This document shows, piece after piece, positions 23,800 through 63,512 of a DNA stretch of 64,000 bases. The translations under genes were made by a program, and so were the position numbers. A model generated the notes under the pieces. The model was given only the letters and a program-made list of their open reading frames with translations, made no database searches and was not told the origin of the DNA. Source of the stretch: a virus; the IMG/VR virus record IMGVR_UViG_3300043411_001639, positions 92,733 through 156,732 of that record. The stretch is one strand, 5' to 3'. Position 1 is the stretch's first letter. Each line of letters starts with the position of its first letter.

Positions 23800-24639
23800 C
23801 TACATCAACAGGATTTTACCAATATAATAACCAATTAAATTCTCTATATGACCCACAATGTTTTCTTCATATGAGGGTAAATCTTGTTTATACATTTCAA
23901 GAGCATGTCGGTTGCTAGGATTAATATCCCCATAGAATTTTATAGTTTTTGGTAGTTGAAGTTTAACTGTTCCCGTTAATAAATACTGTGCTATCAATTC
24001 ATAAACAAATTCATATCCTCTATTAAGTTTCTTGTCTCTGGCGGACTTCATTGTTCCTATTTGTTGAAATACTTCTCCCAAGCCTGGTTCAAATAACTTA
24101 GTGAAATAAATACCATAAACTTCACCCAGAATATTTCTTAGGATTGAAGTTAATTCTCTTTCAAAATATTGAAACTCTTCAGGGTTCCCTTTCCCATTCA
24201 TCATATCCCTATTCATTACATGTCCAAATCTATGAGCAATTGTCCAACCTGTCATTGGAACTTTTTGATCACCAAAATTACCGTTAAAAATTATAGTAAT
24301 ACTATCAGGGTTTGGGTCTGGAATTTCATTGGGTGATATTTTTAGTTCTGTTCTCAGAAAATTTAAATCTATTGGACCTATCTCTTGGTAATCTTCACTG
24401 TTTGTGTAAGATTTATTAAGCATATAAACATCAAAGTTAAATTTTGTTCTTTCCCACTGTTTTGTTATTTTTTCAATAGCTTTTGGATTTGTTAATAATT
24501 TTCTGTCAGTGTCATCAAATCCACCTTCTTCAGCTTCTCTACCTGTAAAATTTCCTACAAGTTTTGTCTTGATTGGCATTTCATTCAAGATTACTGACTC
24601 AACAATCATAATGAACTTTTGTTTTTCAAACTGATCCAT
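23800..24639 (-). CDS. Zincin-like hypothetical protein (HRxxH variant); likely start 24639
   Basis: WTIAHRFGH followed by EFVYELIAQYL; N-terminal MDQ...IVESVILNE. Confidence 0.55.
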   Translation of the reverse strand: MDQFEKQKFIMIVESVILNEMPIKTKLVGNFTGREAEEGGFDDTDRKLLTNPKAIEKITKQWERTKFNFDVYMLNKSYTNSEDYQEIGPIDLNFLRTELKISPNEIPDPNPDSITIIFNGNFGDQKVPMTGWTIAHRFGHVMNRDMMNGKGNPEEFQYFERELTSILRNILGEVYGIYFTKLFEPGLGEVFQQIGTMKSARDKKLNRGYEFVYELIAQYLLTGTVKLQLPKTIKFYGDINPSNRHALEMYKQDLPSYEENIVGHIENLIGYYIGKILLM

Positions 24640-24657
24640 GTTCTCTAGAATATATGT

Positions 24658-24915
24658 ATGATGAACAACTCTAAACAAGAACAGTTGGGTTTGATCCTAG
24701 CTCTACAGTATCAGAAAGAAACAGATACTATACTATGGGATTTATTAAACACAAAAAAGTATCATGGTTTAGTAGACATCTGGTATGAGTTTAACAATGA
24801 CAGGTTAGATATTAAATTCCAGCAGATAAAAACACCTGATGTTCAGAAACATAATAATGAAACAATGAGATGGTTTGTTAGTCAAGAAAAACAAGCTGTA
24901 AAACACGTTGTTTAA
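24658..24915 (+). CDS. Hypothetical protein
   Basis: 85 aa ORF filling the gap before primase. Confidence 0.5.
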   Translation: MMNNSKQEQLGLILALQYQKETDTILWDLLNTKKYHGLVDIWYEFNNDRLDIKFQQIKTPDVQKHNNETMRWFVSQEKQAVKHVV

Positions 24916-24953
24916 AGCCATAACCAACTATGGTAACATGGGTATGAACAGAA

Positions 24954-25961
24954 ATGAGTTTTACTCTAGGAGAATCACAAGAGTTTTTAACCAAAGTATT
25001 TGGTTCTGGAAAGTTAACAGGTAACGGTCTTAATTTTGCTATCTCTTGTCCGTTCTGTCAAGACACTAACCACAAGAAGAAACTTGAAATTAGACTTGAC
25101 TATTTTGTTTGTCATTGTTGGATCTGTGGTTTCAAGAGTAAAAACCTTGTTAAACTTTTAAAAGAAACTAACAACCAACACCATGTTAGAGAATATCTTG
25201 ATAAGTTTGGCAAGAGTTTACTGTTAAAAGAACAAGCAGAGGAAGAACTGTTCTCAGATAAACTTAACAGACTTCTTGATAAAACTACTAGTAATAATAA
25301 ACAACCAGAGACACAACAGGTAGATCTTCCTAAAGATTTTAAGTTACTAGCAGTAAACCTTGATTCAAAAACCGCTAAACCTTATTTAGACTATCTTATA
25401 AAACAAAGAGGTTTGGAATTAAGAGATCTGTGGTACTATAAGATTGGTATAGCTCCAGGTACATATCCGAACAGAGTTATTATCCCTTCACACAGACCTG
25501 ATGGTAGTTTAAACTACTTTATTACTAGAACAATCAACAGTTGGGAAAAACCTAAATATTACTCTCCTGTTAAACAAAGAACAGATCTAATATTCAACGA
25601 GATTAACATAGACTGGACATTGAACAGAATAGTCCTTGTTGAAGGAGTGTTTGACCTGATGAAAGTAGCATATGAAAACACAGTACCACTACTAGGAAGT
25701 GAGTTAGACGAGAAAACAAGACTATTTCAAACCATAATAAACAATGCAGATACTATGGAAGTTATACTGGGACTTGATAATGACGCTAAAACAAAGACAG
25801 TAAAACTTGTCAAACAGTTTCAAAACTACGGAATCAACCCTAAAATAGCAATCCCAAACAACAATGACTTTGGTCAGATGATGAATAAACAGAATGTTGA
25901 ACAACAAATAAACAACGCTAGAGAGTTTACTTTTCAACAACTGTTACAATGGAACATATAA
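24954..25961 (+). CDS. DNA primase (Zn finger + TOPRIM)
   Basis: CPFC...CHCWIC zinc ribbon; RVIIP, PKY, LVEGVFD and LGLDND TOPRIM motifs. Confidence 0.9.
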   Translation: MSFTLGESQEFLTKVFGSGKLTGNGLNFAISCPFCQDTNHKKKLEIRLDYFVCHCWICGFKSKNLVKLLKETNNQHHVREYLDKFGKSLLLKEQAEEELFSDKLNRLLDKTTSNNKQPETQQVDLPKDFKLLAVNLDSKTAKPYLDYLIKQRGLELRDLWYYKIGIAPGTYPNRVIIPSHRPDGSLNYFITRTINSWEKPKYYSPVKQRTDLIFNEINIDWTLNRIVLVEGVFDLMKVAYENTVPLLGSELDEKTRLFQTIINNADTMEVILGLDNDAKTKTVKLVKQFQNYGINPKIAIPNNNDFGQMMNKQNVEQQINNAREFTFQQLLQWNI

Positions 25962-25967
25962 ACAACA

Positions 25968-29534: not shown

Positions 29535-31667
29535 ATGTCAACAAGAAAATTAGCAAAACAAGAACAGATTGATGAACTAATGAAATGTGGTTCAGATCCA
29601 ATCTATTTTATCAAAAACTACCTATTCATTCAACATCCAGAAAAAGGAAGAATACCTTTTGAACTCTTTGAATTCCAAGAAGACTGCATCAGAGACTTTT
29701 TAAAATACAAATTTAATGTAGTGGTCAAGTCAAGACAGTTGGGATTATCCACCACCGCCGCCGCTTATTGCCTATGGATGGCAATGTTCCATGAAGATAG
29801 AAACATATTAATTCTTGCTACTAAACTTGATGTAGCTAAAAAGATCATCAATAAGATTCGTGTAACTTTTAAGATGTTACCTGGATGGATGGTAGGTTTG
29901 CTTGGTTTAACAGAACCAGAAGCAAGCTCTGTCAAGTACATGAAACTATCAAACGGTTCTACCATTACTGCTGAACCCACAACAGAAAACTCAGGACGTT
30001 CAGATGCTCTGTCTTTATTGGTAATAGATGAATGCGTAACAGGAGATACCACTATTCAAATAAGAAATAAAACAACAGGTGAAATAAAAACCGTTGAAAT
30101 ACAAGACTTATTAAGTTCAGAATATAGGGGATCTATTAATCAAGATTTAAAATTAATAGACGAACTAGAGGTTTTAACTCCTAGTGGTTGGAGTAGTTTT
30201 ACTGGAGTTAAAAAAACTACCAAACAAGAGAAGTATGAGGTATTAACTGAACACTCAAAACTAGAATGTTCAAAAGGACACAGACTTAAACTGGAAGATG
30301 GTAGTTTTGTTGAGGTAAAAGATCTAAATCCAGGGAACAAACTTGACAATCAAAATATTGTTGTTTCAATTAAACAAACCCAAGAAACAACAGATTTTTT
30401 TGATTTAATTAATGTTGAAAAACATAGTGAATATTATACCAACAATATAACAAGCCACAATTGTGCTCACATTGAAGGTTTAGAAGATATTTGGGTGGCT
30501 TTAAAACCTGCTCTAACAGTAGCTAAAAACGCTAAAGTTATTGCATTTAGTTCACCTAAAGGAAAAGCAAACTTCTTCTATAAACTCTATAAAGAAGCAG
30601 AAACAGGGGTTTGGGAAGAAGACAAAAAAGGCTTCCATGCTAAAGGACTAGGCAAGAACAGTTTTCACGCTATTAAACTTCCTTGGACAGTACATCCTGA
30701 TAGAGATGAAAAATGGTTTGAAGAAGAATCAAAATCAATGGATGCCAAAGCTATTGCTCAAGAGTTCATGGCGTCATTTGAACAATCAGGTGACACTTAT
30801 TTTAACATTGAAACAATGAACAACATTGAACAAGAACTTGAAGAACCACTATACCATGATGGTCCTAATGAAAAAAACATAGATGCACTCTGGATCTGGA
30901 AAGAAGTTTTCTTAGATCACAAATACCTGTTGTGTGGTGATGTATCAAGAGGAGATGCTCAGGATTTTAGTGCATTCCATATAATCAATACTACTACTTG
31001 GGAACAAGATGCTGAGTTTATGGGCAAGATACCACCGGACAAATATGCTGATTACATGGTTGAGATAGCCAAAAGATATGGGGAAGCTTTTATTATACAA
31101 GAGAAAAACTCTGTAGGTATAGCTACAGCTATCAGACTAAGAGACTTAAAATATCCTCATGTTTACTGGCAGGATAAATCACAAGATGAACAACTATACA
31201 TGTCTGATGAAGAAAAGACAATGTTGTTTCCAGGATTTACTATGAAACCAGGAAATAAACCAGGAAATAGAGATGAGCTTTTAATAAATCTTGAAGGAAT
31301 ATTAAGAAACAAACAATTATTAATCAGATCAAGAAGATTCTATTCTCAGATGCAAGACTTCATTTGGAATGGCAAGAAGGGACAAGCAGCCAAGGGGAGA
31401 AATGACGATCTTATCACTTCTCTGGCTATTGGTTGTCACATAGTAAAACCAGAAAGAAACAACGTTAATAAAACAGACAAAGAAGCTCCTGGCTCAATTC
31501 CAGATTTTCAAAACATGTTTCTCAAAGTCATGAGAAGACAGAATATTAATACAAATATTAACCTTGGACAACAAACATTTAATGGAGTTAAACTCAAACC
31601 AGGAGTTAGATCTGAAGCTGTTGCTCAGCAACAACAAGTAAAAGATATGTTTGGTTGGATGTTTTAA
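29535..31667 (+). CDS. terL: Terminase large subunit (T4 gp17-like) containing an intein
   Basis: DPIYFIKNY, PFELFEFQ, KSRQLGLST (Walker A), LLVIDE (Walker B), SSPKG, GDVSRG, NDDL nuclease motifs. Confidence 0.95.
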   Translation: MSTRKLAKQEQIDELMKCGSDPIYFIKNYLFIQHPEKGRIPFELFEFQEDCIRDFLKYKFNVVVKSRQLGLSTTAAAYCLWMAMFHEDRNILILATKLDVAKKIINKIRVTFKMLPGWMVGLLGLTEPEASSVKYMKLSNGSTITAEPTTENSGRSDALSLLVIDECVTGDTTIQIRNKTTGEIKTVEIQDLLSSEYRGSINQDLKLIDELEVLTPSGWSSFTGVKKTTKQEKYEVLTEHSKLECSKGHRLKLEDGSFVEVKDLNPGNKLDNQNIVVSIKQTQETTDFFDLINVEKHSEYYTNNITSHNCAHIEGLEDIWVALKPALTVAKNAKVIAFSSPKGKANFFYKLYKEAETGVWEEDKKGFHAKGLGKNSFHAIKLPWTVHPDRDEKWFEEESKSMDAKAIAQEFMASFEQSGDTYFNIETMNNIEQELEEPLYHDGPNEKNIDALWIWKEVFLDHKYLLCGDVSRGDAQDFSAFHIINTTTWEQDAEFMGKIPPDKYADYMVEIAKRYGEAFIIQEKNSVGIATAIRLRDLKYPHVYWQDKSQDEQLYMSDEEKTMLFPGFTMKPGNKPGNRDELLINLEGILRNKQLLIRSRRFYSQMQDFIWNGKKGQAAKGRNDDLITSLAIGCHIVKPERNNVNKTDKEAPGSIPDFQNMFLKVMRRQNINTNINLGQQTFNGVKLKPGVRSEAVAQQQQVKDMFGWMF
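30033..30461 (+). mobile_element. Mini-intein (143 aa, no endonuclease) in terminase Walker B
   Basis: Starts CVTGDT after IDE; block B CSKGH; ends FFDL...YYTNNITSHN followed by C (+1). Confidence 0.92.
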
Positions 31668-32616: not shown

Positions 32617-33126
32617 ATGCTAAATGAAATGGTAATTGACGTTATAAACCAAGCTCAACAAGAGTTGTTTCAACAAACTGATGATTATTCAGAACTTGCT
32701 ATACTACTAGCTTTATTAAGATCATTAAATATATTACACCAATCTCATCACTGGCAATCAGAAGGTAATCAGTTTTATTCTGATCACTTGTTATTCCAAC
32801 GATTATATGAAAAAATTCAAGATGAAATTGATATAGTTGGGGAAAAAACAGTAGGTTTAGGTAAACCATATCTAACAAACTACTTTAAACAATTAAAGAT
32901 GATTAAACTGTTCTTAAAAACTTTAACAGATTCAAATGTGTCGTATACTTTAAACTCTTATAGAGCAGAACTGTTTGTTGTTGAATTTATTGAAGAAATA
33001 ATTCAAAGATTAAAACTTAAAGAGTTTCTAAGTTCGGGACTTGAACAAACACTAGGTACTATCCAAGAAACACACGAACAGTTCTGTTATCTTCTCAAAC
33101 AACAAACAAGAGAAACATCATATTGA
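32617..33126 (+). CDS. Dps/ferritin-like protein (likely start ATG 32617)
   Basis: HQSHHWQSEG..FYSDHLLFQRLYE....EID..GEK matches the Dps HW...F...H..F..lYe.......D..aE pattern. Confidence 0.75.
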   Translation: MLNEMVIDVINQAQQELFQQTDDYSELAILLALLRSLNILHQSHHWQSEGNQFYSDHLLFQRLYEKIQDEIDIVGEKTVGLGKPYLTNYFKQLKMIKLFLKTLTDSNVSYTLNSYRAELFVVEFIEEIIQRLKLKEFLSSGLEQTLGTIQETHEQFCYLLKQQTRETSY

Positions 33127-33944: not shown

Positions 33945-34273
33945 GGGAAAGCTTCAATGACAATATCATGTCCTGCTATCCAAGCTACTTGTTTGTAGTG
34001 TTCAAAAAATACTGGATAAAGTAGTACGTCATCATCGCCATATGTGTTTTGTTCTTTGTGTTCTTTTAGATAACTTCTCTTTGTTTTTGCAGGTCTTCCA
34101 TCTATCTTACCTAAACTTCCTTGTTTAACCCCTCCTACAAATTTTGGATTAATATATCCTCTGTCATCAAAAATATACTGTCCATTTATATTTGGAACTG
34201 TATAAACAGAAGCAGGAATATCTCTTACATCTGTTGAGTGAGATCTTGAAACTTTAACTAAATCACCTATCAT
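33923..34273 (-). CDS. Hypothetical protein coupled to GroEL
   Basis: 116 aa ORF whose start overlaps the groEL stop. Confidence 0.6.
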   Translation of the reverse strand: MIGDLVKVSRSHSTDVRDIPASVYTVPNINGQYIFDDRGYINPKFVGGVKQGSLGKIDGRPAKTKRSYLKEHKEQNTYGDDDVLLYPVFFEHYKQVAWIAGHDIVIEAFPQPDINL

Positions 34274-35919
34274 TGTTGTTCACCTTTACTTGTTAATTCT
34301 GATTCATTTTCATTCATAATTACACCGCCTGAAGTTAGAACCGTTCCAACAACACTTGAAGCATGTTGTAAAGCATGTTTTGCTACTTTTACTGGATCTA
34401 TTATTCCAAGTTGTATTAAATCTCCAAACTGTTCTGTTGAAGCATCATATCCATATGAAAAACTTTGATCTGTTGCTTGTTCAAGTTTCTCACAAACAAT
34501 CTCTGAACTTTTACCAGTATTTTCAACTATGGTTCTAAGAGGTTCTTTACAAGCATGAAGAACCGTTAAATAACCTGTTCTTTTGTCACCTTTTAATACT
34601 TGATGCCTTTCTAGTTGTTTCTCAAGAGTTCCAGCAATTTTAAACAACGCTGTTCCTCCTCCTGGTATAATTCCTTCTTGAACTGCTGCTATTGTAGCAT
34701 TCAAAGCATCTTCAACCCTGTCTTTTTTTTCAAAAATTTCAGGTTCAGAACTTCCTCCTACTCTAATAACTGCTATTCCACCAGCTAGTTTAGCTAGTCT
34801 TTTTCTCTGACTAACTCTTTGATTATCTGTTAGATGTTCATTAAGAGAACCCTTGATATCTTCAATTCTCTTCTGTAGTTTTTGTTTTACTTCAACTGTT
34901 GCTTCTTCACATAAAAAAGTAGCAGTAGTTCTTGAAACTATAATTTTTTTACATGTTCCAAGATCTTTGGTTGTTAGTTTTTTCAGAGAGTTTTCATTCC
35001 CAGCGTCCAACACAGTACCTTGAGTTAATAAACCCATGTCATGCAACAGATCTATTCTATAATCTCCAAACCCAGGTGCTTTAATAGCACAACATTTTAA
35101 TACTTCTTTCATCTTATTAACAATAAGACTGTGTAAAGCTTCTCCTTCTATCTCGTCTCCTATTACTAGAAGAGATCTATTTTCATTAGCTACTGCTTCT
35201 AGTACAGGAATTAAATCTTGCAGGTTTGATATTTTCCTGTTTGTTATTAAAACATATGGGTTTTCTAACTCTGCTATGTTTTTTTCTTGATTTGTTATGA
35301 AATAAGGTGAAACATATCCTGATTCAACCTGCATTCCTTCAACAACTTCAAGTGTAGTGTTAAAAGATTTAGTGGGCTCAATAGTAATAATACCATCTGG
35401 ACCTACAAGTTTAATGGCTGATGCTATCAACCTACCAACTGTTTTATCACCGTTAGCTGATATGGTTCCTATGTTTACTATATCTTCTTCATTTCTAACA
35501 GGGATTGATTTTAGACTATTAAGAACATCTCTAGTAGCAAGATCCATTCCTTGTTTGAACAAGATTGGGTTTGCTCCTGCTTCAATAAGTTTATGTCCTT
35601 CCTTTAACAAAGAAAATGCTAACACTACCGATGTTGTAGTACCATCCCCCGCATTGTCATTAGTTTTACTTGCTACTTCTTTAAGAAGTTCTGCTCCTAT
35701 ACTTGGAAGTTTTTTTCTTAAGTTGATAGCTCTAGCGACCGTAACACCATCTTTTGTAATCTGAGGTAACTGATTCCCTCTGTCAATGATAATGTTTTTA
35801 CCGGAAGGACCCATGGTAGTTTTTACAGCTCTATATAAAACCTCTGCTCCTTCTAACAAACCCTTTCTTGCTTCGCTGTCAAACACTACATCTTGTTTTA
35901 GTTTTAAACTGTTAATCAT
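34270..35919 (-). CDS. groEL: Phage-encoded chaperonin GroEL (Cpn60)
   Basis: VKTTMGPSG, ITKDGVTVA, AGDGTTT, KAPGFGD, RLAKLAGG.AVI.VG, DRVEDALNAT, GIIDPVKV. Confidence 0.97.
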   Translation of the reverse strand: MINSLKLKQDVVFDSEARKGLLEGAEVLYRAVKTTMGPSGKNIIIDRGNQLPQITKDGVTVARAINLRKKLPSIGAELLKEVASKTNDNAGDGTTTSVVLAFSLLKEGHKLIEAGANPILFKQGMDLATRDVLNSLKSIPVRNEEDIVNIGTISANGDKTVGRLIASAIKLVGPDGIITIEPTKSFNTTLEVVEGMQVESGYVSPYFITNQEKNIAELENPYVLITNRKISNLQDLIPVLEAVANENRSLLVIGDEIEGEALHSLIVNKMKEVLKCCAIKAPGFGDYRIDLLHDMGLLTQGTVLDAGNENSLKKLTTKDLGTCKKIIVSRTTATFLCEEATVEVKQKLQKRIEDIKGSLNEHLTDNQRVSQRKRLAKLAGGIAVIRVGGSSEPEIFEKKDRVEDALNATIAAVQEGIIPGGGTALFKIAGTLEKQLERHQVLKGDKRTGYLTVLHACKEPLRTIVENTGKSSEIVCEKLEQATDQSFSYGYDASTEQFGDLIQLGIIDPVKVAKHALQHASSVVGTVLTSGGVIMNENESELTSKGEQQ

Positions 35920-47852: not shown

Positions 47853-47880
47853 TTGCAAAGGTGCAGAATCATGCTATACT
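47853..47880 (+). promoter_or_regulatory. Sigma70-type promoter, leaderless
   Basis: TTGCAA-N16-TATACT with extended TG, 6 nt before ATG 47887. Confidence 0.6.
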
Positions 47881-47886
47881 AAGTTC

Positions 47887-50337: not shown

Positions 50338-50367
50338 AGATAGTTTCTTTCTATTTATGAGTTAGCT

Positions 50368-51669: not shown

Positions 51670-51688
51670 TTCCATACTTATCAACACT

Positions 51689-52327
51689 GTGAATTCCTTT
51701 GATTTTCTACTTGAAACTTTGTCTTATGAAGAACTTAAAAAAGCTATCAAGCAACACATTCTTGACAACAAAGATACAGAACTTGAAAGACATAAAGATT
51801 CAATATTAAAACTAATTGATCAAGGAAAGTATAAAAAACTACTTCATGTTAAAAACACAAAGTATGTTTACAGAATCATTGATTTTAAAGACATTAAATT
51901 TTTAGAAACCATAACAAACACCAGACAACTATCCAAAGAACCTGGAGTAGTACACAAACTTCCCAAGGGAATACTAAAACCCAAGAAAGATATTTCCAGT
52001 TGGACTTCTAATCCCAGATCATTAATCTACAGCGGGTTTCTTTCTGTTTTATCTTCTTCAAAAACAAACCTAGTGTTGTTCAGAGCAAAAGTAAACAATA
52101 AAAACAACACGTTGTTTGGTAATCCAGATGACATGGCTAAAGAAGTTAAAACAGATAATGGTTATTTCTATGAGAAAGAAGTAATAGGAATGGGAGATAT
52201 AGTTTATGACAAGGCTGTATACCAAATTCAACAAGAAGGTTTAGGACTTGAAGCTCTGGCACTTAACCTGATTAACACACTAGAAGATTTTAAGAAGATA
52301 AAGTACGAAGGGGATTATTATGCCTAG
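51689..52327 (+). CDS. Putative ADP-ribosyltransferase (R-S-E clade); likely start GTG 51689
   Basis: YVYR, ISSWTSN and YEKEVI in the expected order. Confidence 0.55.
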   Translation: MNSFDFLLETLSYEELKKAIKQHILDNKDTELERHKDSILKLIDQGKYKKLLHVKNTKYVYRIIDFKDIKFLETITNTRQLSKEPGVVHKLPKGILKPKKDISSWTSNPRSLIYSGFLSVLSSSKTNLVLFRAKVNNKNNTLFGNPDDMAKEVKTDNGYFYEKEVIGMGDIVYDKAVYQIQQEGLGLEALALNLINTLEDFKKIKYEGDYYA

Positions 52328-52985
52328 ATTGTTTGTTACTTCAAAAGAGATTGAGTACATGAATGATGTAATCAAAGAAGTTATTAAAGATGTTGTAGGA
52401 CAGAAAATATACTATTATGCTATATCAAAGGCTGGTACTACTGTTAATAAAATCTATAATGAATCAGATAAAAAAGTGTTTGAACCACCACTAGCTCTTG
52501 ATGTTCTAATAGGACAACCACAGTGGGAAGGTAAGTTTAATAAATTTGGCTATCAACAAGGAGCTACTGTTGAAATAGTCGTACAAGCCAGAGATCTGAT
52601 AGATAAAAGAATACAGATATTCCAAGGGGATTATTTTGTCTATGGTGATGCGGCGTTTGAAATTGTTTCTTATCTAAACATGAACAATATATTTGGGCAA
52701 GAAGAATATGAAAGTGCGTATAAGATCATAGGCAAACTAGCACTTCCAGGTGAGTTTGACTCAACAAGTTTGTTTAATCCAACGAAAGAATCTATTGACA
52801 ACTCTGGTATTGAACAGAAGTTTGAACAACAAAGAGGGATTGAGACTGATTCTAAAGGCAGACCAACTGGAGATATAAGACAAGTACAAGAGAGACTTAA
52901 GCAAGAGAATGACTTACCTCCAGTAGCAATGAATGAAGGTCCAAGAAAAGTAATTAAAACAAAGGGATTCTTCTATGATGAATAA
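52320..52985 (+). CDS. Neck/head-closure protein (T4 gp14-like)
   Basis: GQKIYYY.I......N.IY.E...K.F, KFG, GDYF.YG; position after the gp13-like gene. Confidence 0.7.
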   Translation: MPRLFVTSKEIEYMNDVIKEVIKDVVGQKIYYYAISKAGTTVNKIYNESDKKVFEPPLALDVLIGQPQWEGKFNKFGYQQGATVEIVVQARDLIDKRIQIFQGDYFVYGDAAFEIVSYLNMNNIFGQEEYESAYKIIGKLALPGEFDSTSLFNPTKESIDNSGIEQKFEQQRGIETDSKGRPTGDIRQVQERLKQENDLPPVAMNEGPRKVIKTKGFFYDE

Positions 52986-53700
52986 ATATGATGGTTCTTG
53001 GTCAACCTATGAGTTTGTGTTTGAGGAAGAAACCCCTGAATTAACTGACTATCAAGATTCAGTTAATAGATCCAACTATATCATACAAGAGATAGAGGGT
53101 TTAAGGAAACAATACAAGCAGGCTTATGCGGGCTTTGGAATAATAGAACAACTAATACGGGAGTTACCTCAGATAGAATATTTACTGTCAAACAAAGAGG
53201 AGCTAGAGGGTATTAAAGGTAATGCTTACCAAGCTGCTAGTTTATTAGCTGAGAGTCAGCTTACCATACAAGGTATCTACGGATTCATAGCTGTACTACT
53301 AAACAAAAACGTGATAAATAGACTAGAAAACTATAAAACAATATCTGAAATGTTAAAGATGAAAGAATTGGTACAGGCATTTGATACAAGTATCAAGGTT
53401 ATGAACCAGTTAGTTTCTGGACAAGTACCTTTGAGACTTAGCAGTGCAGAAGTATCCTATAGTTTATACAAGAAACTGTGGGATCTAGGATTTAATAGTT
53501 CCAAGGTATTGTTATCTCCAGAAGAGTACAAAGATTCTCCTGCAAAAACTCTGGTTGAAGGATTTACTTATAAACTTCTAATAGCTTATTATAGTTTCTT
53601 GGGTATTCATAATAGTTTAGCGGTGTTAACAACACAACTAAACAAGGCACATGATGTTCCAGAACTAAACAGGTGGTTAAAAACTCATACACCTAGTTAA
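52975..53700 (+). CDS. Hypothetical helical protein
   Basis: 241 aa ORF between neck and tail terminator genes; YEFVFEE near the N-terminus. Confidence 0.6.
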   Translation: MMNKYDGSWSTYEFVFEEETPELTDYQDSVNRSNYIIQEIEGLRKQYKQAYAGFGIIEQLIRELPQIEYLLSNKEELEGIKGNAYQAASLLAESQLTIQGIYGFIAVLLNKNVINRLENYKTISEMLKMKELVQAFDTSIKVMNQLVSGQVPLRLSSAEVSYSLYKKLWDLGFNSSKVLLSPEEYKDSPAKTLVEGFTYKLLIAYYSFLGIHNSLAVLTTQLNKAHDVPELNRWLKTHTPS

Positions 53701-54919: not shown

Positions 54920-57900
54920 ATGGCAGAAAAAAAACTTAGAGCTCCTGGTTTTCAGGCAAATGAAATAGATTTAACAATCCCAAAAGCAGAAGAACCAACT
55001 GGAGTTCCTCATGCAATCATAGGTCCATCTCAGAAGGGTCCAGCATTTGTACCTAGTCTGATAGGTAATTTTCCTAGTTTTGAAGCAAGGTTTGGAGGAC
55101 ACAACGGAGAGTTTATTACTTCTTATGCTGTTGAACAGGTGGTTGGCAATGGAAAACCTGTGTTGTTTATCAGAACTCTTGGAGCAGGAACAAACAAGAC
55201 AGTAACAGATATTGAGCTAACAAGAGTAACAGATACTGTTAGACATGCAGGTATGAAAGTAACAGGAAGTGCAATAGCAGATCTAAGACACAATGGATCA
55301 GTTCAATTCCTAGCAGCTAAACACGTTGTAACAAGTTCTGAAGCAGTTAGCTATCCTATGTTTAGTGATAACCAGAGTTATACAATGACCTCTAACTATG
55401 TTCATTTGATCAGAGGGGTTGTTTTTACAGCTTCTGATACTCGTCTCATGGTTATGAGTGCTTCTGAAGAAACATTTGGTAACTTACTAGATGATTCAGT
55501 TACTATTGATGATACAATTACCAACCCAACCTATAGAAAATTTAAACTTGTTATTTCAAGTTCTGTTGGTGCAACTTTTGCTACTACAGATGGTCTAAGC
55601 GGTTTAAGAATCTTAACTGCTTCCTTTAACCCTTCCAGCAATGATTATTTTGGCAAGATTCTAAACAAAGATCCTGAAAAGTTCAGCACAGAAAAACACT
55701 TGTTATATTGTGATTTTCCTGTTGATAATGAAGTTGCAACAGTAGCTTCAGGTTCTGGAAACACAGAAACAGTTGTGGTTCTTTCAGGAAGTAGTGTTAC
55801 TTCTCCAAACTCAGGACTTACTTCTTTGAGTTTTAGAGACGCTTTTGGTTATTACAACACAAGATACACTACTCCAAAAACACCTATGTTTATTTCTCAG
55901 CCTTTTGGGGAAACTGAACATGACTTGTTTTATGTTGAAGCTATAGATGATGGTGCAGTTGCTACGACCAAATACAAAATCAGTATTTCAAATATCAAGA
56001 GAAGTATAGATCCAAAATATGCTTACGGCACCTTTACTCTTCTTGTAAGAGATTTTAATGACTCAGATTTTGAACCTAAAATTCTAGAAAGATTCTCAGA
56101 ACTAAGTCTAGATCCAGATTCAGTTTCATTTATTGGAAACGTGATAGGTGATAGAAAAATCTATTTTAACTTTGATGTTGAAAACGAAGATGATAGAAGA
56201 CTCGTAGTTAATGGAAAATACCCAAACAACTCAAAATTTATCAGAGTTGTTATCAGTCAAAACGTAATCAACAAACAAATTCCTGAAAGTTGTCTTCCCT
56301 TTGGTTTCAAGGGTGTACCTGTTTTAAATACAAACACTCTTCAAACAGATTCAACTCCAAGACTAGCCTTAGCAAGACTAGCAGGTTCAGGATCATTTAA
56401 CTCAAGACTAACAGGTTCTATTGTTCCTCCTCTTCCAATGAGATTTAAAGTAACAAGAGGTGAAGTAAACTCAAGTCCTAGTTTCACAGGGCATAATGGT
56501 CCTAGTGAAATAGTTGACTCAAGATTGTTTTGGGGTGTTAAATTTGAAAGAAACAACAACCTTTCAAATCCTAATCTAAGTTCAGAAAAAAATGAACTCA
56601 TAAACTCTTATGCTAAGTTTCAAGGTTTATCAAAACTTGATGTTCTTATAACAGGATCTTATGCCGATTCATTTAACAATAATAAATTTAGTTTAGCCAA
56701 AGTAGCTTTGTCTTTTGGTAGTATTGAATTTCTTACAGCTTCAATTGATACACACATGAAAGAAGCAGCTTATATAAGAAACGGCAAAAACATTGTTGAT
56801 TTTTTTTACGCTATTGAAGATGGGAGTTGGGGCGGTAGATTAACCTTGATGTCCTTGTTGGAATTATCTTATTATATTCCTGCTCAATTATCAACATTCA
56901 ATAGATTTTCTGAATATATGAAATTTTCAACCTTCATGTATGGTGGTTGGGATGGAACAAACATCTTTGATAGAGCAGCTAATAGATTTAATGATAGATC
57001 AACCTCAACAGAATCAAGTAGTATTGGCTATGGAGGGGCTTCAACAAGTTACTCATCACCAGGAGCCACAACAGGTGTAAACCATGCTGGATATGGACTT
57101 GAAAACAATCAAGTTAACTCTTATCTGCAAGCAGTTAATCTAGCAACAGATCCAAATCTTTCAATAGCAAACATAGTTTGTGCACCAGGAATAAGAGAAC
57201 CTTTGATAACTGACTATCTTCTTGATAGATGTCATTCAGAACATCAAATGTCTGAAGGGGTAATTGATGTTCCTTATTACGATGATCAAAACATTCGTAT
57301 ATTTGATGGTGAAACCAGAAGAACCATTGACATAGAAAACACAGCTAAAAATTTTGATTCAAGAACAATTGATAAAAATGTAGGAGTAACATACTTCCCT
57401 AACGTTACCATTGAAGATGGTACAAATAAAAAACTCCTAACAGTTCCAGCTTCAATTGCAGCTTTGAGTGCTATATCTTACACAGATAAAGTTAGTTTTC
57501 CTTGGTGGGCAGTTGCGGGTTTGAACAGAGCTTCACTTGATTTTGTCAAGGGAGCACAAGTAAGAATCAACAACAAAACAGACAGAGAAATTCTATACTC
57601 AGCTAGAATTAATCCTATAATAAAACTTCCAAGAGAAAGTTTTGTTATTTGGTCGCAACAAACACTAGCTCTAGGAGATAGTTTGTTTACTAACCTAAAC
57701 ATCAAACGTATGGTTCTTGAAATAAAAAGAATCATTGTGGCAATAGCTACAAGACTTGTGTTTGAAAACATTACTCCTGATCTATATCAGAACTTTACAA
57801 CTCAAACAAATTCTGTTCTTTCTGTTGTACAAACAAGAGAAGGAGTAGAGAGTTTCAAGGTAATTTGTGATGAAACAAACAACTCAGATGACGATAGAAA

Positions 57901-58006
57901 CAACAATAAAATGAATGGTGTCATCATGATACAACCAACCAAAGCTTTTGAATATATTGAATTAAGTTTTGCAGTATACCCAAGCGGGGTTGTCTTTTCG
58001 GACTGA
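54920..58006 (+). CDS. Tail sheath protein 1
   Basis: APGF..NEIDL, IIGP.QKGPAFVP, GGWDG, YFP.V, FPWWAVAGLNR, RINPI, IWSQ.TL, LNIKR, IQPTKAFEYI. Confidence 0.92.
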   Translation: MAEKKLRAPGFQANEIDLTIPKAEEPTGVPHAIIGPSQKGPAFVPSLIGNFPSFEARFGGHNGEFITSYAVEQVVGNGKPVLFIRTLGAGTNKTVTDIELTRVTDTVRHAGMKVTGSAIADLRHNGSVQFLAAKHVVTSSEAVSYPMFSDNQSYTMTSNYVHLIRGVVFTASDTRLMVMSASEETFGNLLDDSVTIDDTITNPTYRKFKLVISSSVGATFATTDGLSGLRILTASFNPSSNDYFGKILNKDPEKFSTEKHLLYCDFPVDNEVATVASGSGNTETVVVLSGSSVTSPNSGLTSLSFRDAFGYYNTRYTTPKTPMFISQPFGETEHDLFYVEAIDDGAVATTKYKISISNIKRSIDPKYAYGTFTLLVRDFNDSDFEPKILERFSELSLDPDSVSFIGNVIGDRKIYFNFDVENEDDRRLVVNGKYPNNSKFIRVVISQNVINKQIPESCLPFGFKGVPVLNTNTLQTDSTPRLALARLAGSGSFNSRLTGSIVPPLPMRFKVTRGEVNSSPSFTGHNGPSEIVDSRLFWGVKFERNNNLSNPNLSSEKNELINSYAKFQGLSKLDVLITGSYADSFNNNKFSLAKVALSFGSIEFLTASIDTHMKEAAYIRNGKNIVDFFYAIEDGSWGGRLTLMSLLELSYYIPAQLSTFNRFSEYMKFSTFMYGGWDGTNIFDRAANRFNDRSTSTESSSIGYGGASTSYSSPGATTGVNHAGYGLENNQVNSYLQAVNLATDPNLSIANIVCAPGIREPLITDYLLDRCHSEHQMSEGVIDVPYYDDQNIRIFDGETRRTIDIENTAKNFDSRTIDKNVGVTYFPNVTIEDGTNKKLLTVPASIAALSAISYTDKVSFPWWAVAGLNRASLDFVKGAQVRINNKTDREILYSARINPIIKLPRESFVIWSQQTLALGDSLFTNLNIKRMVLEIKRIIVAIATRLVFENITPDLYQNFTTQTNSVLSVVQTREGVESFKVICDETNNSDDDRNNNKMNGVIMIQPTKAFEYIELSFAVYPSGVVFSD

Positions 58007-58033: not shown

Positions 58034-61000
58034 ATGGTAGAACAATTTAGAAGTGCTGGCGTTACAACAAGAGAAATTGAACAACAAAACATTGTTGCCC
58101 AACAATCTAACGCAATTCCAGCATGTGTGATATCAACCACAGAAAAAGGGCCAGCTTTCCTCCCAACCATATTAACTTCACCAGAAGAATATGAAACAAC
58201 TTTTGGAGTTTCAACAACTGATAATCCGTATGGTTTCCTTTCCGCTAATGAATGGCTGAGTTATCAGCCTTCTTTAATGCAAGTTAAAATACTAGGAGTA
58301 GGGGATGGAACTAAAAGAACATCAACAGAAACAAACAAAGGAAAAGTAACCAATGCTGGATTTGTTGTTGGCGATCAACAACCTCAATCAAGTTTAAGTG
58401 GTGGTTTAGCTAACAACCCTTATGCTGTTCCTACAAGTGCAGGAGCTATCGCAGCAACAGGAAGAAACTATGTTCTAGCTGTTGCCATGAGTCAGAGTGT
58501 TGGTTCAACTTATTTTACAGAAGCGGGTTTATCAGCTACTCCGATTATACTCAGAGGTATGATCATGGCAGCTTCAGGGGTTGTTCTAACTCTTTCAGCT
58601 TCAAATGTTTCAAGTGATATGGCAGACAACACTGTTGCAGCAGATATTACTGTTTCTGCTAACATCAAAGGTTTCCATACTGGTTCCGTAAATCTTCAAG
58701 AAGGTTCACAGAACTTTGTTATGTTACTTAATGGGCACAGAGGTTCAACAAGTTATCCCAGAGTGTTAACAGGAAGTTTTGATCATACAAGAAACAACTA
58801 TTTTGGAAACATCTTTAATAAAGATCCACTAAAACTTGAAGAAGCAGGACATTTACTATACAGTTATTTTGATATCAACAGTGCGGTTGCTACTGTTACA
58901 GGATCAGGAATTGTTCCCGCTGTTTCAGGGGCAGGAACAACAGTTGGAGCTGGTTATGAAAGAATAGCATTCTTAGTAACATCTTCAAGAGAAAGAAACA
59001 TGGGTTCTGCTACTGTTCCTAATTTTGAAGGATTTGAGGATAGATTTAGAACAGCAAACAGTAGTTGGATCATGTCACAAAAGTTTGGTGGAACTCCAAT
59101 AAATCTATTTAAGTTTTGGAGTTTAGATGATGGTGAAATAGGACATAAAAAAGTTAAGATTACTATTGAAAACATCACGCCTTCCAACAACACTTCATAC
59201 TTGTTTGGTACATTTGATGTTGTTGTTAGGGATATCAATGATAATGATACAAATAAAATTGTACTTGAACCATTCAGAGGTTTATCCCTTGATCCTAAGA
59301 ACGCAAGATTTATAGGTAAGATTATAGGAAATGGTTACACTTATTTTAACTTTGATGCCGCTGAATCAAAACAAAAACTAGTAGACCTTGAAGGTTACCC
59401 TGTTAGATCAAAATATATCAGGGTTGAACTGTCAGATGAAGTAGTTGAAGAATCTATTGATCCTTCCGCTTTACCAATGGGATTCAGAGGACCACAACAC
59501 TTGGTAACATCAGGAAGTGCAGTATTCAACACTCACTCAGATGACTATCTGACTATTTCAAATCCGTTTAGAAGAATAGTACAACTTCCTGTACCAATGA
59601 GAATCAATCTTGTAAAAGGAACTGGAAGCTCACAAACTGTTGATAGAAATCTTTGTTGGGGGGTTCAGTTTGAACAAAGAATCTCTGCAACAGAACCTAA
59701 CTCTACTATCAGACCCAATACAAGTCTTGACAGTTTTAAAAAATACTATCCAAATTACCATACAGAATACATGAATGTTGTGGTAAAAGACAATGAAGGT
59801 GTAGCAGATACAGCGGAAAACACTGTTCTTGATTCAGATAGATTTAACAACAACGTTTTCACCCTAGAAAACGTTCAAGTAACTTACAACGCTACTAGCT
59901 TACTTCCTGATCTAAACACACTAACTTCCTGGAGTTATGTTAGACAAGGGGGAATTACCACAAACACTGGTGCTCTAACAAGAGCACTAACAGTTACAGA
60001 CCTAAGAGATACAGGAGTTAGAGCCCTTGGTAAGTTTTCTTTTTATCTTGAAGGTGGTTTTGATGGTGTTAGAATTTTTAACCAAGAAACTAAAAGGCTT
60101 TCAAACATAGCCACCGTAGAGGAATACACAAACAGTACCAGAGGTTTAACTCAAGGTCCAACTATTAAAGCCTACCAAAAAGCTCTTGATATTGTAGGAG
60201 ACACCTCCTATCTTGATTTTCAAATTATAACAATACCTGGAATGAGACTTGCTTATCTGACAGATCTTGCTCAAAACTTAATGGAAACATCAAAAGATGC
60301 AATGTTTATCATGGACATTGAAGAGAGAGACAGTGGTAATCAAAAAGTTCTATCTGAAACTCAAGTAGTTAATGTTTTAAATACTATAACAGATTTCCAG
60401 AACAGAGGAATCAGCACTTCTTATACTTCAGCTTATTTCCCTGACGCTAACGTATTAAACAGATCTTCAAGAACAAGAGTTAGAGTTCCTCCTTCTGTTG
60501 TAGTTCTAGGAATATTTGCTAAGAATGATTCAATAGGTCATCCTTGGACAGCACCAGCAGGTTATACTAGAGGAAACCTATCTTCAACAGAAAGTCTAAC
60601 AACTATTCTTTCAAGAAAAAATATGAACGATCTTGCATCAGCAAACATCAACCCTCTTGTTGTGTTTCCAGGTCAAGGTCCGGTTGTTTGGGGACAGAAA
60701 ACCCTTAATGACAAGATGTCAGCTTTTGATAGAATCAATGTTAGAAGACTACTACTGGATCTTAGAAGAAAAGTAAGAACAGTAGCACAAAGAATGTTGT
60801 TTGAACCTGCTAGAGATACAACCCTTGCAAGATTCTCAGCACTAGTAAACCCAATACTAAAACGTATTCAAGATCTAAAAGGTGTTGAACAGTACAAGGT
60901 AATCATTGATACCTCTACTACTACAGAAGCAGACATAGAAAACAAAACAATTAGAGGATTGATCCTACTTGTTCCTACAAAAGCTCTTGAGTTTGTATCT

Positions 61001-61039
61001 CTTGACTTCGTTGTTACTAACACTGGAGTAAATGTATAA
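58034..61039 (+). CDS. Tail sheath protein 2
   Basis: SAGVTTREI, KGPAFLP, GGFDG, VPPS, PWTAPAGYTRG, INPL..FPGQG.VVWGQKTL, DRINVRRLL, PTKALEFV. Confidence 0.95.
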   Translation: MVEQFRSAGVTTREIEQQNIVAQQSNAIPACVISTTEKGPAFLPTILTSPEEYETTFGVSTTDNPYGFLSANEWLSYQPSLMQVKILGVGDGTKRTSTETNKGKVTNAGFVVGDQQPQSSLSGGLANNPYAVPTSAGAIAATGRNYVLAVAMSQSVGSTYFTEAGLSATPIILRGMIMAASGVVLTLSASNVSSDMADNTVAADITVSANIKGFHTGSVNLQEGSQNFVMLLNGHRGSTSYPRVLTGSFDHTRNNYFGNIFNKDPLKLEEAGHLLYSYFDINSAVATVTGSGIVPAVSGAGTTVGAGYERIAFLVTSSRERNMGSATVPNFEGFEDRFRTANSSWIMSQKFGGTPINLFKFWSLDDGEIGHKKVKITIENITPSNNTSYLFGTFDVVVRDINDNDTNKIVLEPFRGLSLDPKNARFIGKIIGNGYTYFNFDAAESKQKLVDLEGYPVRSKYIRVELSDEVVEESIDPSALPMGFRGPQHLVTSGSAVFNTHSDDYLTISNPFRRIVQLPVPMRINLVKGTGSSQTVDRNLCWGVQFEQRISATEPNSTIRPNTSLDSFKKYYPNYHTEYMNVVVKDNEGVADTAENTVLDSDRFNNNVFTLENVQVTYNATSLLPDLNTLTSWSYVRQGGITTNTGALTRALTVTDLRDTGVRALGKFSFYLEGGFDGVRIFNQETKRLSNIATVEEYTNSTRGLTQGPTIKAYQKALDIVGDTSYLDFQIITIPGMRLAYLTDLAQNLMETSKDAMFIMDIEERDSGNQKVLSETQVVNVLNTITDFQNRGISTSYTSAYFPDANVLNRSSRTRVRVPPSVVVLGIFAKNDSIGHPWTAPAGYTRGNLSSTESLTTILSRKNMNDLASANINPLVVFPGQGPVVWGQKTLNDKMSAFDRINVRRLLLDLRRKVRTVAQRMLFEPARDTTLARFSALVNPILKRIQDLKGVEQYKVIIDTSTTTEADIENKTIRGLILLVPTKALEFVSLDFVVTNTGVNV

Positions 61040-61041: not shown

Positions 61042-61602
61042 ATGAAAATAACAATCAAAGAACTAAAGGCCATTATCAAAGAAACTGTTGACAAAAAGAA
61101 AAAACAAGAACAAGTTAAGCGTAAACAACTGTTAGATAATAAAAAACTAACAGAAGAGTTGTTTGGTATAACCGAATCAGATACTAATGTTAATATTGAT
61201 ACTGATGAAACAGTTACAGAAGGTAGTTTTAAAAATCTAGCTCTTGGGGCAGCGTTAGCAACAGGACTTGCTGGAGGAGCAATTGCTAATCAAACTGTAA
61301 GATCAAATCATAATTCCGCAGCTTATGGAGCCATTCATAGAATAGTTGATTCAACTAACTCAAGAACTTCTGGCGGTGATATGGCTTGGTTTATTGGGGC
61401 AGATAGTTTTGCAAAAACAGAAGAGATAGAAAGACTTCTTGTCCAAAAACTTAAAACAGAAGGTGGTAGATTCCTTCAACTAGCAAACCAAAGTGATTCA
61501 AGAAATATAGGTCTTGCCTTACGAACTCTTGCAGATGAAAGTCTTACTCTAACAGATCAAGAAAAAGAGTTAGTTAGAAGTTTTGCATCAAGACTAAGAT
61601 AA
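61042..61602 (+). CDS. Candidate internal head protein with a hydrophobic Gly/Ala segment
   Basis: MKITIKELKAIIKE leader; VTE/GSFKNLALGAALATGLAGGA. Confidence 0.6.
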   Translation: MKITIKELKAIIKETVDKKKKQEQVKRKQLLDNKKLTEELFGITESDTNVNIDTDETVTEGSFKNLALGAALATGLAGGAIANQTVRSNHNSAAYGAIHRIVDSTNSRTSGGDMAWFIGADSFAKTEEIERLLVQKLKTEGGRFLQLANQSDSRNIGLALRTLADESLTLTDQEKELVRSFASRLR

Positions 61603-61642
61603 TCAGTAACAATGATATTTACCAAAAGGATAATAAACAACA

Positions 61643-62134
61643 ATGGTTAGAACAATTCCAGTATCAGAAATGAATCCTGTTAAATTTACTCCAAAGATGA
61701 AAAGACACTTCATTTTTGCTATTGAAGGGATTGATATGTTTTTAGTTAAAACAGCTCAAAGACCTACTTTTGCAACAGAAGAAGTTGAAATTCCTTGGAT
61801 TAACCAAACAAGATTCATAGCGGGGAAAACAAAACCCAACGCTATAACAGTAACACTCCACTCAGCAATAGCTCCAAGTGCAGAACAACAAGTCATGGAA
61901 TGGCACAGACTTTGCCATGAATCTGTATCAGGTAGAGATGGTTATCCAGACTTCTACAAAAGAGACATCCAGATTAAGATTCTTGATCCAGTAGGCTCAA
62001 TAGTAGAACTCTGGGATATTAAAGGTGCATTCATCACAGAAGCTAACTTTGGTGACCTTTCACATGAAGCTGGTGCAGAAATGCTTGAAATATCATTAAC
62101 GATCAGATTTGATGTTGCAGTTATGCAATTTTAG
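61643..62134 (+). CDS. Tail tube protein (T4 gp19-like)
   Basis: PK...F...I.GI...LVK...RP, AGK, VMEW, YKRDI...LDP.G..VE.W.IKGAF......GDL. Confidence 0.92.
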   Translation: MVRTIPVSEMNPVKFTPKMKRHFIFAIEGIDMFLVKTAQRPTFATEEVEIPWINQTRFIAGKTKPNAITVTLHSAIAPSAEQQVMEWHRLCHESVSGRDGYPDFYKRDIQIKILDPVGSIVELWDIKGAFITEANFGDLSHEAGAEMLEISLTIRFDVAVMQF

Positions 62135-62191
62135 TCAGCTATATGGTATCGGGGTTATACATCAGTTGGAAACTACTATATCATTATAGGT

Positions 62192-63046
62192 ATGACAACT
62201 GAGTATACCTGCCCCCATTGTAAACAATATCAAACAACTTCTCTTGATTCTTTAGGACGACATGTCGGTCGTTCTCATAAAAATCAATTTACCAGACAAC
62301 AACTTTATGAAGTTCTATTTCTTAATGGAACTACTCCTACTTGTAAATGTGGTTGCGGTGAACCTGTTAAATTCCTGACTATTGAACTTGGATTTAGAGA
62401 ATATAAAGTAGGACATATTTCCCGAATTAACAACAACTATCAAACAGAAAAATCTGTTACTAATTCAAAAAACACAATTAAAAAATTAAACCAAGAAGGA
62501 AAATGGAACCAACTCCAAAAGGATTGGTCAAAAGGTTTAACAAAAGAGACAGATCAACGTGTTAAGAACATGGCTGATAGTATAAATTCAAATTCAGAAG
62601 AAATCAGAAAAAGATCAGAAAGGTTCTCAAAGTTAAGACTGGATGGTACTGTTCAGACACTATATGGTCCAGAACATTCACAATGGAAAGGAGGAGTAAG
62701 CACTTTGAGTAATCTCTGTAGAAGTTATACCAGATTCTATAAAGAATGGAAATATCCCAGGTTAGTTGAAGCTGGATTTAAATGTTCTGAATGTCCTAAC
62801 ACTAAACCATTAGAGGTTCACCATGATAAAGAAACCTTTTCGGAGATTTTGAGATCTATTGCTAAAAAACTTAATTGGGAGGAAAGTTTCACAACTAGCA
62901 CTGTTTCAACAGAAGAAATTGAAAAACTAAAACAACAAATAAAAGATGCTGTTGTTGATTATCATGTTAACAATAACATTTCTGGCAAGGTTCTTTGTTA
63001 TGAATGCCATTTAAAACAACACGACCGTTATAATTTCTCTAAATAA
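62192..63046 (+). CDS. Free-standing HNH homing endonuclease with C2H2 and CxCGC Zn modules
   Basis: CPHC...HVGRSH, CKCGCG, WKGG, CSEC...LEVHH...LCYECH...H. Confidence 0.85.
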   Translation: MTTEYTCPHCKQYQTTSLDSLGRHVGRSHKNQFTRQQLYEVLFLNGTTPTCKCGCGEPVKFLTIELGFREYKVGHISRINNNYQTEKSVTNSKNTIKKLNQEGKWNQLQKDWSKGLTKETDQRVKNMADSINSNSEEIRKRSERFSKLRLDGTVQTLYGPEHSQWKGGVSTLSNLCRSYTRFYKEWKYPRLVEAGFKCSECPNTKPLEVHHDKETFSEILRSIAKKLNWEESFTTSTVSTEEIEKLKQQIKDAVVDYHVNNNISGKVLCYECHLKQHDRYNFSK

Positions 63047-63062
63047 ACTTCTACTTACTTCT

Positions 63063-63512
63063 ATGAATGATGAGATCCTATTGTTAACAGAACTATTGTT
63101 TGTTGAAACATCAAACAAGGAAGTTCAGGCTAAGGCATTCAAGGATGATCTTCACAGAAACAATCCAAAACTATACAAAGATCTGGAAACTCAGGCTATG
63201 ATGGCTATCAACGCTGTTAAGAGAGGTGAGAAACCCAAATACAACGTTGATAACTTAAAAACATTGTTTAGTTGGAATCCAGCATTTGATCCAATAGTAT
63301 CTGGTGATACTTATGGGGTTAGAGCGTTTATTACGTCTTTGATGGGGGATAACAAGTCTGCTGGGAAGGTTAAGAGATTCTATGACAGGACAATTGACCA
63401 GTATTTCAAACAGATATATGGTAAATCCATTGAAACCAAGAAGAAGAAAAAAAAGAAATCACTGATTCAACAAGACAAACATTATAAACCACCAAGTTCA
63501 ATTGAACACTGA
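63063..63512 (+). CDS. Hypothetical protein, candidate internal head protein
   Basis: CTACTTA motif 5 nt upstream; LLTELLFVE leader. Confidence 0.6.
   Translation: MNDEILLLTELLFVETSNKEVQAKAFKDDLHRNNPKLYKDLETQAMMAINAVKRGEKPKYNVDNLKTLFSWNPAFDPIVSGDTYGVRAFITSLMGDNKSAGKVKRFYDRTIDQYFKQIYGKSIETKKKKKKKSLIQQDKHYKPPSSIEH

Follow-up and report, generated by a model that had tools for sequence, protein, structure and literature searches.

In bacteriophage T4, proteins are directed into the head by a capsid-targeting sequence (CTS), a propeptide of 10–19 residues that targets the protein to the prohead core and is then removed by the protease gp21, and the CTS alone packages foreign proteins (PMC9026906, PMC3012670, PMC5694885). 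The CTS of the T4 internal proteins IPI, IPII and IPIII was described by Mullaney and Black (1996; reviewed in PMC9026906 and PMC3012670), T4 Alt, a packaged ADP-ribosyltransferase (ART), is cut by gp21 at ITE-6 and LTE-619 (PMC5694885), and gp21-type proteases have Glu at P1 (PMC5694885). In the giant phages phiKZ, 201phi2-1 and SPN3US, the prohead protease is likewise Glu-specific, N-terminal propeptides are found on many proteins of the head interior, and diverged paralogues have identical N-termini (PMC5694885, PMC7411985). We found no paper describing CTS-like tags outside the T-even group. Here, we analyzed a 64,000-nucleotide window (IMG/VR record IMGVR_UViG_3300043411_001639, positions 92,733 to 156,732) that lies at the very end of one phage contig of 156,732 bp (GC content ~33%) and constitutes the late half of a T4-like phage, a distant and uncultured relative of T4. 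Eight genes of the window open with a candidate leader of 9–21 residues ending in hydrophobic-x-Glu (Φ-x-E). These leaders are non-random, are under selection at the level of protein, move between protein bodies, and co-occur with a protease of the Peptidase_S77 family; we consider it likely that they are T4-type N-terminal propeptides, that is, capsid-targeting sequences, cut by the prohead protease.

An earlier note on this DNA had listed nine such N-termini as a portable leader for a set of head cargo proteins. All nine are present where the note placed them, and eight of the nine exceed chance. The leaders fall into two types. Type A is amphipathic (M-K-I-T .. L-K-x-I-I-K-E) and is found in genes 42956 and 61042 (genes are named by their first coordinate), with a diverged form in 37563 and 23800; in type B, found in 49624, 51689, 52975 and 63063, a run of hydrophobic residues before Glu occupies the extreme N-terminus (M .. 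Φ-Φ-Φ-E). The genes are:

23800–24639, minus strand: 279-residue member of a widespread His-x3-His family; start ATG at 24639; leader residues 1–20 (24580–24639), with Φ-x-E before (A/M)-P-(I/V).
37563–38591, minus strand: 342-residue protein; leader to Glu21 (38529–38591), then an Asp/Gly-rich linker.
42956–43354, plus strand: conserved post-protease protein; type A leader, residues 1–14 (42956–42997).
49624–50337, minus strand: 237-residue accessory protein, encoded behind the capsid gene and the homing endonuclease that follows it; residues 1–11 (50305–50337) form a type B leader.
51689–52327, plus strand: predicted ADP-ribosyltransferase-fold protein of 212 residues; 9-residue type B leader (51689–51715).
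52975–53700, plus strand: 241-residue protein; type B leader, residues 1–17 (52975–53025).
61042–61602, plus strand: lineage-specific 186-residue protein, its gene inserted between those for sheath and tube; residues 1–14 (61042–61083) form a type A leader.
63063–63512, plus strand: 149-residue protein; type B leader, residues 1–15 (63063–63107).

Comparison with T4 leaders read directly from NC_000866 shows that type B leaders resemble the tag of the T4 internal proteins (IPII and IPIII, MKTYQEFIAE/A; here and below a slash follows the terminal Glu), and that type A leaders resemble the propeptides of T4 gp24 (MAKINELLRE/S) and gp22 (MLKEQLIAE/A); T4 gp21 itself opens MNEPQLLIE/T. As in the T4 system, a short N-terminal peptide ending in Φ-x-Glu is borne by unrelated proteins, a gp21-family protease is encoded, cargo varies between relatives, and some homologues of the proteins analyzed here open almost like the T4 tag (MKTLKEF.. 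or M-R-A-x-E-F-I-x-E). In contrast to the T4 system, the host lineage here is very distant, there are two leader flavours, and the candidate cargo is larger and enzyme-like, whereas the T4 internal proteins are small and basic. The giant phages differ from this locus in having (S/A/G)-x-E sites and propeptides often >100 residues in length; the leaders analyzed here, which like those of T4 are short, have a hydrophobic residue at P3. The best available reading would make this a distant form of T4 capsid targeting, in which the leaders come in two flavours and the cargo is rich in enzymes.

Bare hydrophobic-x-Glu is too common to be informative alone, and it is extended similarity that counts. 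The leaders of 42956 and 61042, which the earlier note had called near-identical on unrelated bodies, are identical at 11 of 14 residues and rank 10 of 32,385 in an all-against-all comparison of the first 25 residues of the 255 open reading frames (ORFs) of the genome. Ranks 1–9 are tandem paralogues; the bodies of 42956 and 61042 are unrelated, and no other two proteins of the genome that are not paralogues match as well at their N-termini. Of the 11 identical residues, 6 are written with different codons, indicating selection on the peptide and not on a DNA cassette. The string VESVIL-x-E, also singled out in the earlier note, is indeed common to 23800 (residues 13–20) and 37563 (residues 14–21). 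For type B, we compared the occurrence of [LIVFM][LIVF][LIVF]E in residues 2–22 with that in a composition-preserving shuffle, and found 6 such N-termini vs. 1.27 expected among genes from 23800 onward (p 0.0008) and 16 vs. 7.6 expected genome-wide (p 0.004). Elsewhere in the genome, type B tags are carried by three to four paralogous kinase-like proteins and by a protein assigned to GNAT by an Acetyltransf_1 match of 21.1 bits, just over the cut-off:

G000:C1:55184–57869 and 81426–82187, outside the window (L091, L092): kinase-like paralogues and GNAT with type B tags.

The strongest support, which we regard as decisive, comes from sequence comparison with other phages. Synteny with the window was found in two IMG/VR contigs, G001 (60 kb) and G002 (19 kb), whose proteins are 55–98% identical to those encoded here. 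Every leader is retained in the G001 and G002 orthologues, which hold the leader while flanking sequence drifts. The 63063 orthologue in G001 retains ..ELLFVE/TSNKEVQ, which contains the sole [LIV]xE site of the protein; the 49624 orthologue retains ..VLIFE/D, and G001 has one extra tagged gene at that locus; the 52975 orthologue has a different, 10-residue leader, again ending in ΦΦΦE, on the same body. The leader of 61042 is invariant in five orthologues down to 54% identity, and the Lys-rich stretch behind it varies. The two relatives carry five genes that the window does not have, two homing endonucleases and three others, and all three of the others, located at syntenic gaps, open with ..LLFE; IYSLLFE stands on two unrelated bodies in G001. 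The comparison supports gain and loss of tagged genes at syntenic gaps.

The same pattern extends to phages at greater distance. In T4-like phages that are more distant (80 loci), the protein encoded next to the protease, on its downstream side, is nearly always type A-led, as is the small acidic protein that follows it, and the type A motif, 18-fold commoner in the first 25 residues than elsewhere, is present not only in these two conserved families but also on roughly a dozen further clusters of bodies. In L025, six tandem small genes, all opening MKIT.., lie just downstream of the capsid gene, and the corresponding locus of L032 contains one MKIT gene and a tagged protein of a different kind, mirroring the variable internal-protein loci of T-even phages. 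Cargo swapping between related genomes, as the earlier note had envisaged, is thus observed both in the extra tagged genes of G001 and G002 and in the different tagged genes of L025 and L032.

The converse, the same body behind different leader types, is observed in three families. The 51689 family (68 homologues) has type B, type A or nearly T4-like leaders ahead of the same domain; the 23800 family (66 homologues) has leaders of ~8 to 20 residues that vary also in type, always ending in Φ-x-E ahead of a conserved (A/M)-P-(I/V); and in the DYRGSH family, named for the start of its body, the leaders of G001 and L100 are of type B and that of L032 is type A-like. The sequence ΦΦ-x-E is present in the first 22 residues of 55% of the 23800 family vs. 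13% of internal windows, and of 53% of the 51689 family vs. 8% of internal windows. With the same leader on unrelated bodies and the same body behind different leaders, the leader is portable, as had been proposed.

The tag is also found beyond this lineage. The 23800 family occurs in 188 IMG/VR stretches, and many of its members open M-(R/K)-A-x-E-F-(I/L)-x-E. In loci of the 23800 family, M-(R/K)-A-x-E-F-(I/L)-x-E stands at the exact start of 16 unrelated body clusters, and it accounts for 2.8% of ORF starts vs. 0.014% of internal Met, a ~200-fold difference. Peptidase_S77 is encoded in 11 of 15 large records with the 23800 family, including 6 of the 7 that are ≥90% complete. The family represented by alignment A3 was not found in five large marine T4-like records and is therefore not universal.

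Two further arrangements were noted in these contigs. L166:939–4217 (plus strand) encodes a 1,092-residue fusion of a 9-residue M-R-A-L-E-F-I-N-E tag, a P-loop (GGPGSGKS) domain and a C-terminal 23800-family domain. At L135:2975–4464 (minus strand), and also in L137 and L138, three consecutive unrelated genes, each tagged M-(R/K)-x-x-E-(F/I)-(I/L)-x-E, lie beside a tagged 23800-family gene, in what looks like an arsenal locus in another phage lineage.

The presumed processing enzyme is encoded within the window, in a late module of T4 type that comprises genes for the portal, an unnamed protein, the protease, two small proteins, a scaffold-like protein, the capsid protein, a homing endonuclease, and neck, sheath and tube proteins. 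The head genes to which the argument refers are:

39487–41400: portal.
41445–42326, plus strand: conserved protein, encoded between portal and protease where T4 has genes 67 and 68.
42331–42951, plus strand: gp21-type prohead protease (Peptidase_S77; phrog_207, E 4.9e-47).
43922–45799, plus strand: acidic scaffold-like protein in the T4 gp22 position, syntenic in related loci.
45835–47775, plus strand: gp23-type major capsid protein (phrog_138, E 2.5e-67).

Over 147 residues, the protease shares 32% identity with T4 gp21, and its GELDH and GISSR align with GELNH and GVSSR of T4, such that the His and Ser catalytic motifs of gp21 are matched, and there are two Φ-x-E sites in its own N-terminus. 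In the capsid protein, VLQE/A, with Glu68 (46027–46038), aligns with a conserved L-(K/R/Q)-E/(A/S) site, followed by N, in 41 relatives, and cleavage after Glu68 is the predicted maturation step. The density of [LIV]xE sites is raised (z 2.5–3.8) in 41445, the protease, 42956, the scaffold-like protein 43922, 37563 and 37237: 14 sites vs. 7.9 expected in 41445 (z 3.0), 23 vs. 13.1 in 43922 (z 3.1), and 6 vs. 1.9 in 42956 (z 3.8), where two further L-x-E sites follow the leader up to residue 27. Such density is the expectation for core proteins that get degraded. The earlier note's placing of these sites in head proteins stands for the scaffold-like protein and the protease, where they are in excess, and for the capsid protein, where the site is conserved. 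The proteins encoded by 41445, 42956 and 43922 resemble the T4 core proteins that gp21 degrades (gp22, gp67 and gp68) in occupying the gene 67/68/22 positions and in being rich in cleavage-type sites; they differ from gp67 and gp68 in that no homology is detectable and in gene order, 42956 being placed after the protease. The family N-terminus of 41445 is kept in relatives, and 41445 is likely a prohead-core protein. The position of 42956 and its leader pattern LKxI(V/I)KEC..E are the same in 72 ORFs of about 70 related loci; because of this positional conservation and its richness in cleavage-type sites, we read 42956 as probably a prohead-core component and not exchangeable cargo.

These considerations divide the leader-bearing proteins into two groups. 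Conserved core- or scaffold-like bearers, which are probably degraded, comprise 41445, 42956 and 43922, and perhaps 37563; accessory cargo that varies between relatives would comprise the putative ART 51689, the His-x3-His protein 23800, 49624, 52975, 61042 and 63063. Exchange, as claimed in the earlier note, is supported for the accessory genes, which vary between relatives, and not for the conserved, core-like 42956. By analogy with T4, the short leader would dock the protein to the scaffold or core while the prohead core assembles on the portal; the gp21-type protease would then cut after the leader-terminal Glu; and the mature protein would remain in the head with the DNA and be ejected into the next host.

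For the candidate cargo protein 51689, a GTG start gives the 9-residue leader, and the G001 orthologue, with ATG, starts at the same point. In alignment A4 (37 sequences), R62, W105 (within SSWT) and E164 (within ExE) are invariant. In an AlphaFold 2 (AF2) model with a confidence (pLDDT) of 92, the leader, with 58, is the sole poorly modelled part, an appendage on a well-folded body. A wide fold search returned 74 chains with Z ≥ 2, and the top 50 are nearly all ARTs; the best matches are Vis (Z 5.6, root-mean-square deviation 4.3 Å, 141 residues aligned), C3stau2 (5.2) and Certhrax (4.9), Z values that are modest, with Foldseek E values of 0.06–0.5. Motifs and predicted fold support assignment of 51689 as an ART of the R-S-E class, an analogue of T4 Alt, in accord with the label given in the earlier note. 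Like Alt, it would combine an R-S-ExE ART fold with a short N-terminal peptide, here ending in L-L-E; it differs from Alt in length (212 vs. ~680 residues), and no sequence similarity was found between the two. A look-up for 51662 returned no named family.

The 23800 family has invariant His136, His140, Glu210 and Glu214, with the motif H-R-F-G-H, and E20 and P22 at the leader junction are ≥90% conserved. The AF2 model of 23800 has a pLDDT of 91. The best Foldseek match, to lethal factor, is weak (E 0.03, TM 0.24), and a wide fold search placed PPEP-3 at Z 3.6 among unrelated helical matches; at the level of predicted structure there is no convincing fold match. The earlier label of zincin is not sustained: HExxH is absent, with no Glu after the first His of H-R-F-G-H. 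For 49624, the look-up gave colicin D/pyocin at 0.82, below lead level, and the RNase and membrane-activity labels of the earlier note are unverified. Alignment A1 shows L19 and E21 of 37563 to be invariant; in a homologue of 24% identity the type A form precedes the same DDG, and other homologues adjoin portals and retain L-x-E-rich leaders. In 61042, only the first 39 residues fit the profile of the small acidic family found after the protease in relatives.

Searches against named families and phages returned little. PHROGs (E limit 0.01) and Pfam (E limit 0.1) gave no match for 23800, 42956, 51662, 52975 and 63063, and only weak sub-threshold Pfam matches for 37563, 61042 and 49624. Sequence-profile searches of the PDB with alignments A3 and A4 gave nothing usable. 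Single-protein scans of IMG/VR gave nothing for 37563 or 61042 and only the close relative for 23800, and a metagenome scan anchored on 52320 yielded three short, uninformative contigs. Neither megablast of 10 kb against named phages nor tblastn with a 132-residue protein returned a match; the best named matches of the capsid protein are in Microcystis, Flavobacterium and Rhodothermus phages, at 33–45% identity.

The ninth listed N-terminus, MLNE, belongs to the following gene:

32617–33126, plus strand: Dps/ferritin-like protein (phrog_3636, E 7.7e-11; phrog_858, E 5e-9).

The Dps-like fold proposed for this protein is plausible (the match to Pfam DUF5856, at 27.4 bits, is under the cut-off of 34.6), and the proposed leader is not: homologues open directly with the first ferritin-like helix, without a Glu-ended leader, and MLNE is therefore not a leader. 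In at least nine large phage contigs that are unrelated to one another (L127, L140, L146, L151, L158, L161, L166, L167 and L174), a Dps-like gene of this type is found no more than 6 kb from a gene of the 23800 family.

Five candidates are co-oriented inside late gene strings, and three are on the opposite strand. The late-promoter-like motifs that had been reported for several of the genes were not confirmed: the T4 late promoter consensus TATAAATA occurs 4 times vs. 5.8 expected and is upstream of none of the candidates. A ATATAGAT-like word precedes the capsid gene and 3415, in an inconsistent pattern.

Several observations weigh against capsid targeting. The type B enrichment within this genome alone is modest, and AT-rich 5' codons could favour some leader residues. 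No depletion of internal [LIV]xE sites was seen in the candidate cargo, and no late promoter was found for the three opposite-strand candidates. The Glu-x-Pro junction of the 23800 family could be part of the mature fold. The S77 counts cover records with the 23800 family, without a matched negative control, and one near-complete 373-kb record with the family gave no S77 match. One alternative is that frequent hydrophobic-x-Glu, together with the use of AT-rich codons near gene starts (Lys, Ile, Phe, Leu, Glu), gives look-alikes without function. Bare [LIV]xE is expected in most 30-residue windows, the MLNE of 32617 being of that kind, and the motif is 2.4-fold enriched at N-termini genome-wide, including that of an aminoacyl-tRNA synthetase, which is surely not cargo. 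However, the p value of 0.0008 persists under the composition-preserving shuffle, leaders survive both orthologue divergence and leader replacement, all three inserted accessory genes are tagged, and the exact-start tag is enriched far above internal Met, leaving chance improbable overall and, for all but one of the nine candidates, already refuted in large part. Conservation of the DNA that encodes the CTS may help cassettes to be exchanged among T-even phages. The shared 5' ends might reflect DNA-level recombination or translation-initiation cassettes that move genes, the peptide itself having no role, and the presence of tagged genes at variable loci adjoining homing endonucleases (47887–49641; in G001, 47848–48981) fits that idea; but identical residues use different codons in both leader pairs, and leaders across families vary in sequence and length yet retain the Φ-x-E end, and we consider this explanation very improbable.

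A peptide that is real and portable could still be an address for some other destination, and the prohead protease would then not cut it: it might dock proteins to the tail, baseplate or membrane, be recognized by the GroEL-like chaperonin of the phage, or act as a signal for regulation or degradation. Consistent with this, several tagged genes (49624–53700 and 61042) lie among neck and tail genes, outside the head block, a chaperonin is encoded at 34270–35919, and type A leaders are predicted to be helical. Nevertheless, we judge another destination unlikely: the form of the leaders fits the propeptides of T4, their last residue is always Glu, as at P1 of gp21-type protease sites (PMC5694885), proteins encoded right after the protease bear leaders of the same type, the capsid protein has a matching site, and the family co-occurs with S77. 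Each of the three alternatives is less likely than capsid targeting by a T4-type propeptide.

If the leaders are capsid-targeting propeptides, a known T4 device would extend to new phages and to new cargo, including an ADP-ribosyltransferase. The sets of proteins that phages inject are known for only a handful of model phages, and such proteins are the first to reach the host. Examples from T4 are IPI, which blocks a restriction enzyme, and Alt, which modifies RNA polymerase. Should the tag act as in T4, sequence would suffice to predict what uncultured T4-like and jumbo phages inject, and the tagged families (the ART, the kinases, GNAT, the His-x3-His family and proteins of no named family) would be prime candidates for early host takeover or counter-defence. 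More tentatively, an N-terminal Φ-x-Glu tag may be a general address label, readable from sequence, across T4-like phages and many S77-carrying jumbo phages; a tag scan would then list the co-injected effectors of each phage, with ARTs, protein kinases, a GNAT, His-x3-His proteins and many uncharacterized proteins among them, and would bring to light dozens of new injected takeover or anti-defence families. Foreign proteins might also be loaded into such phages by means of the tag, a use to which the T4 CTS has already been put.

Other features of the window are as follows. The capsid protein has 646 residues; the gp23 profile covers its N-terminus and residues 344–628, with an insertion of ~200 residues that is Gly/Ser/Thr-rich. 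The second small gene after the protease (43399–43896, plus strand) encodes a 165-residue protein with a Gly-rich C-terminus that is 92% conserved in G001, is present in 1–3 copies after the protease in most related loci, and has no match in PHROGs or Pfam at the limits given above. The gene directly after the capsid gene (47887–49641, plus strand) encodes a 584-residue homing endonuclease with a GIY-YIG N-terminal part, an HNH-like C-terminal part, and an excess of [LIV]xE sites (z 3.2). Two tandem tail-sheath paralogues of ~1,000 residues each (54920–58006 and 58034–61039, plus strand), 85–86% identical to their counterparts in G001, are matched by sheath profiles in their C-terminal third only. 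A full-length GroEL-like chaperonin of 549 residues, 80% identical in G002, is encoded at 34270–35919 (minus strand), in a minus-strand block with four small conserved genes that adjoins the portal region. The large terminase gene (29535–31667, plus strand) is intact in the window, and the G002 copy (L087:10388–13567) is split by a 353-residue ORF that is probably an intein or a homing endonuclease.

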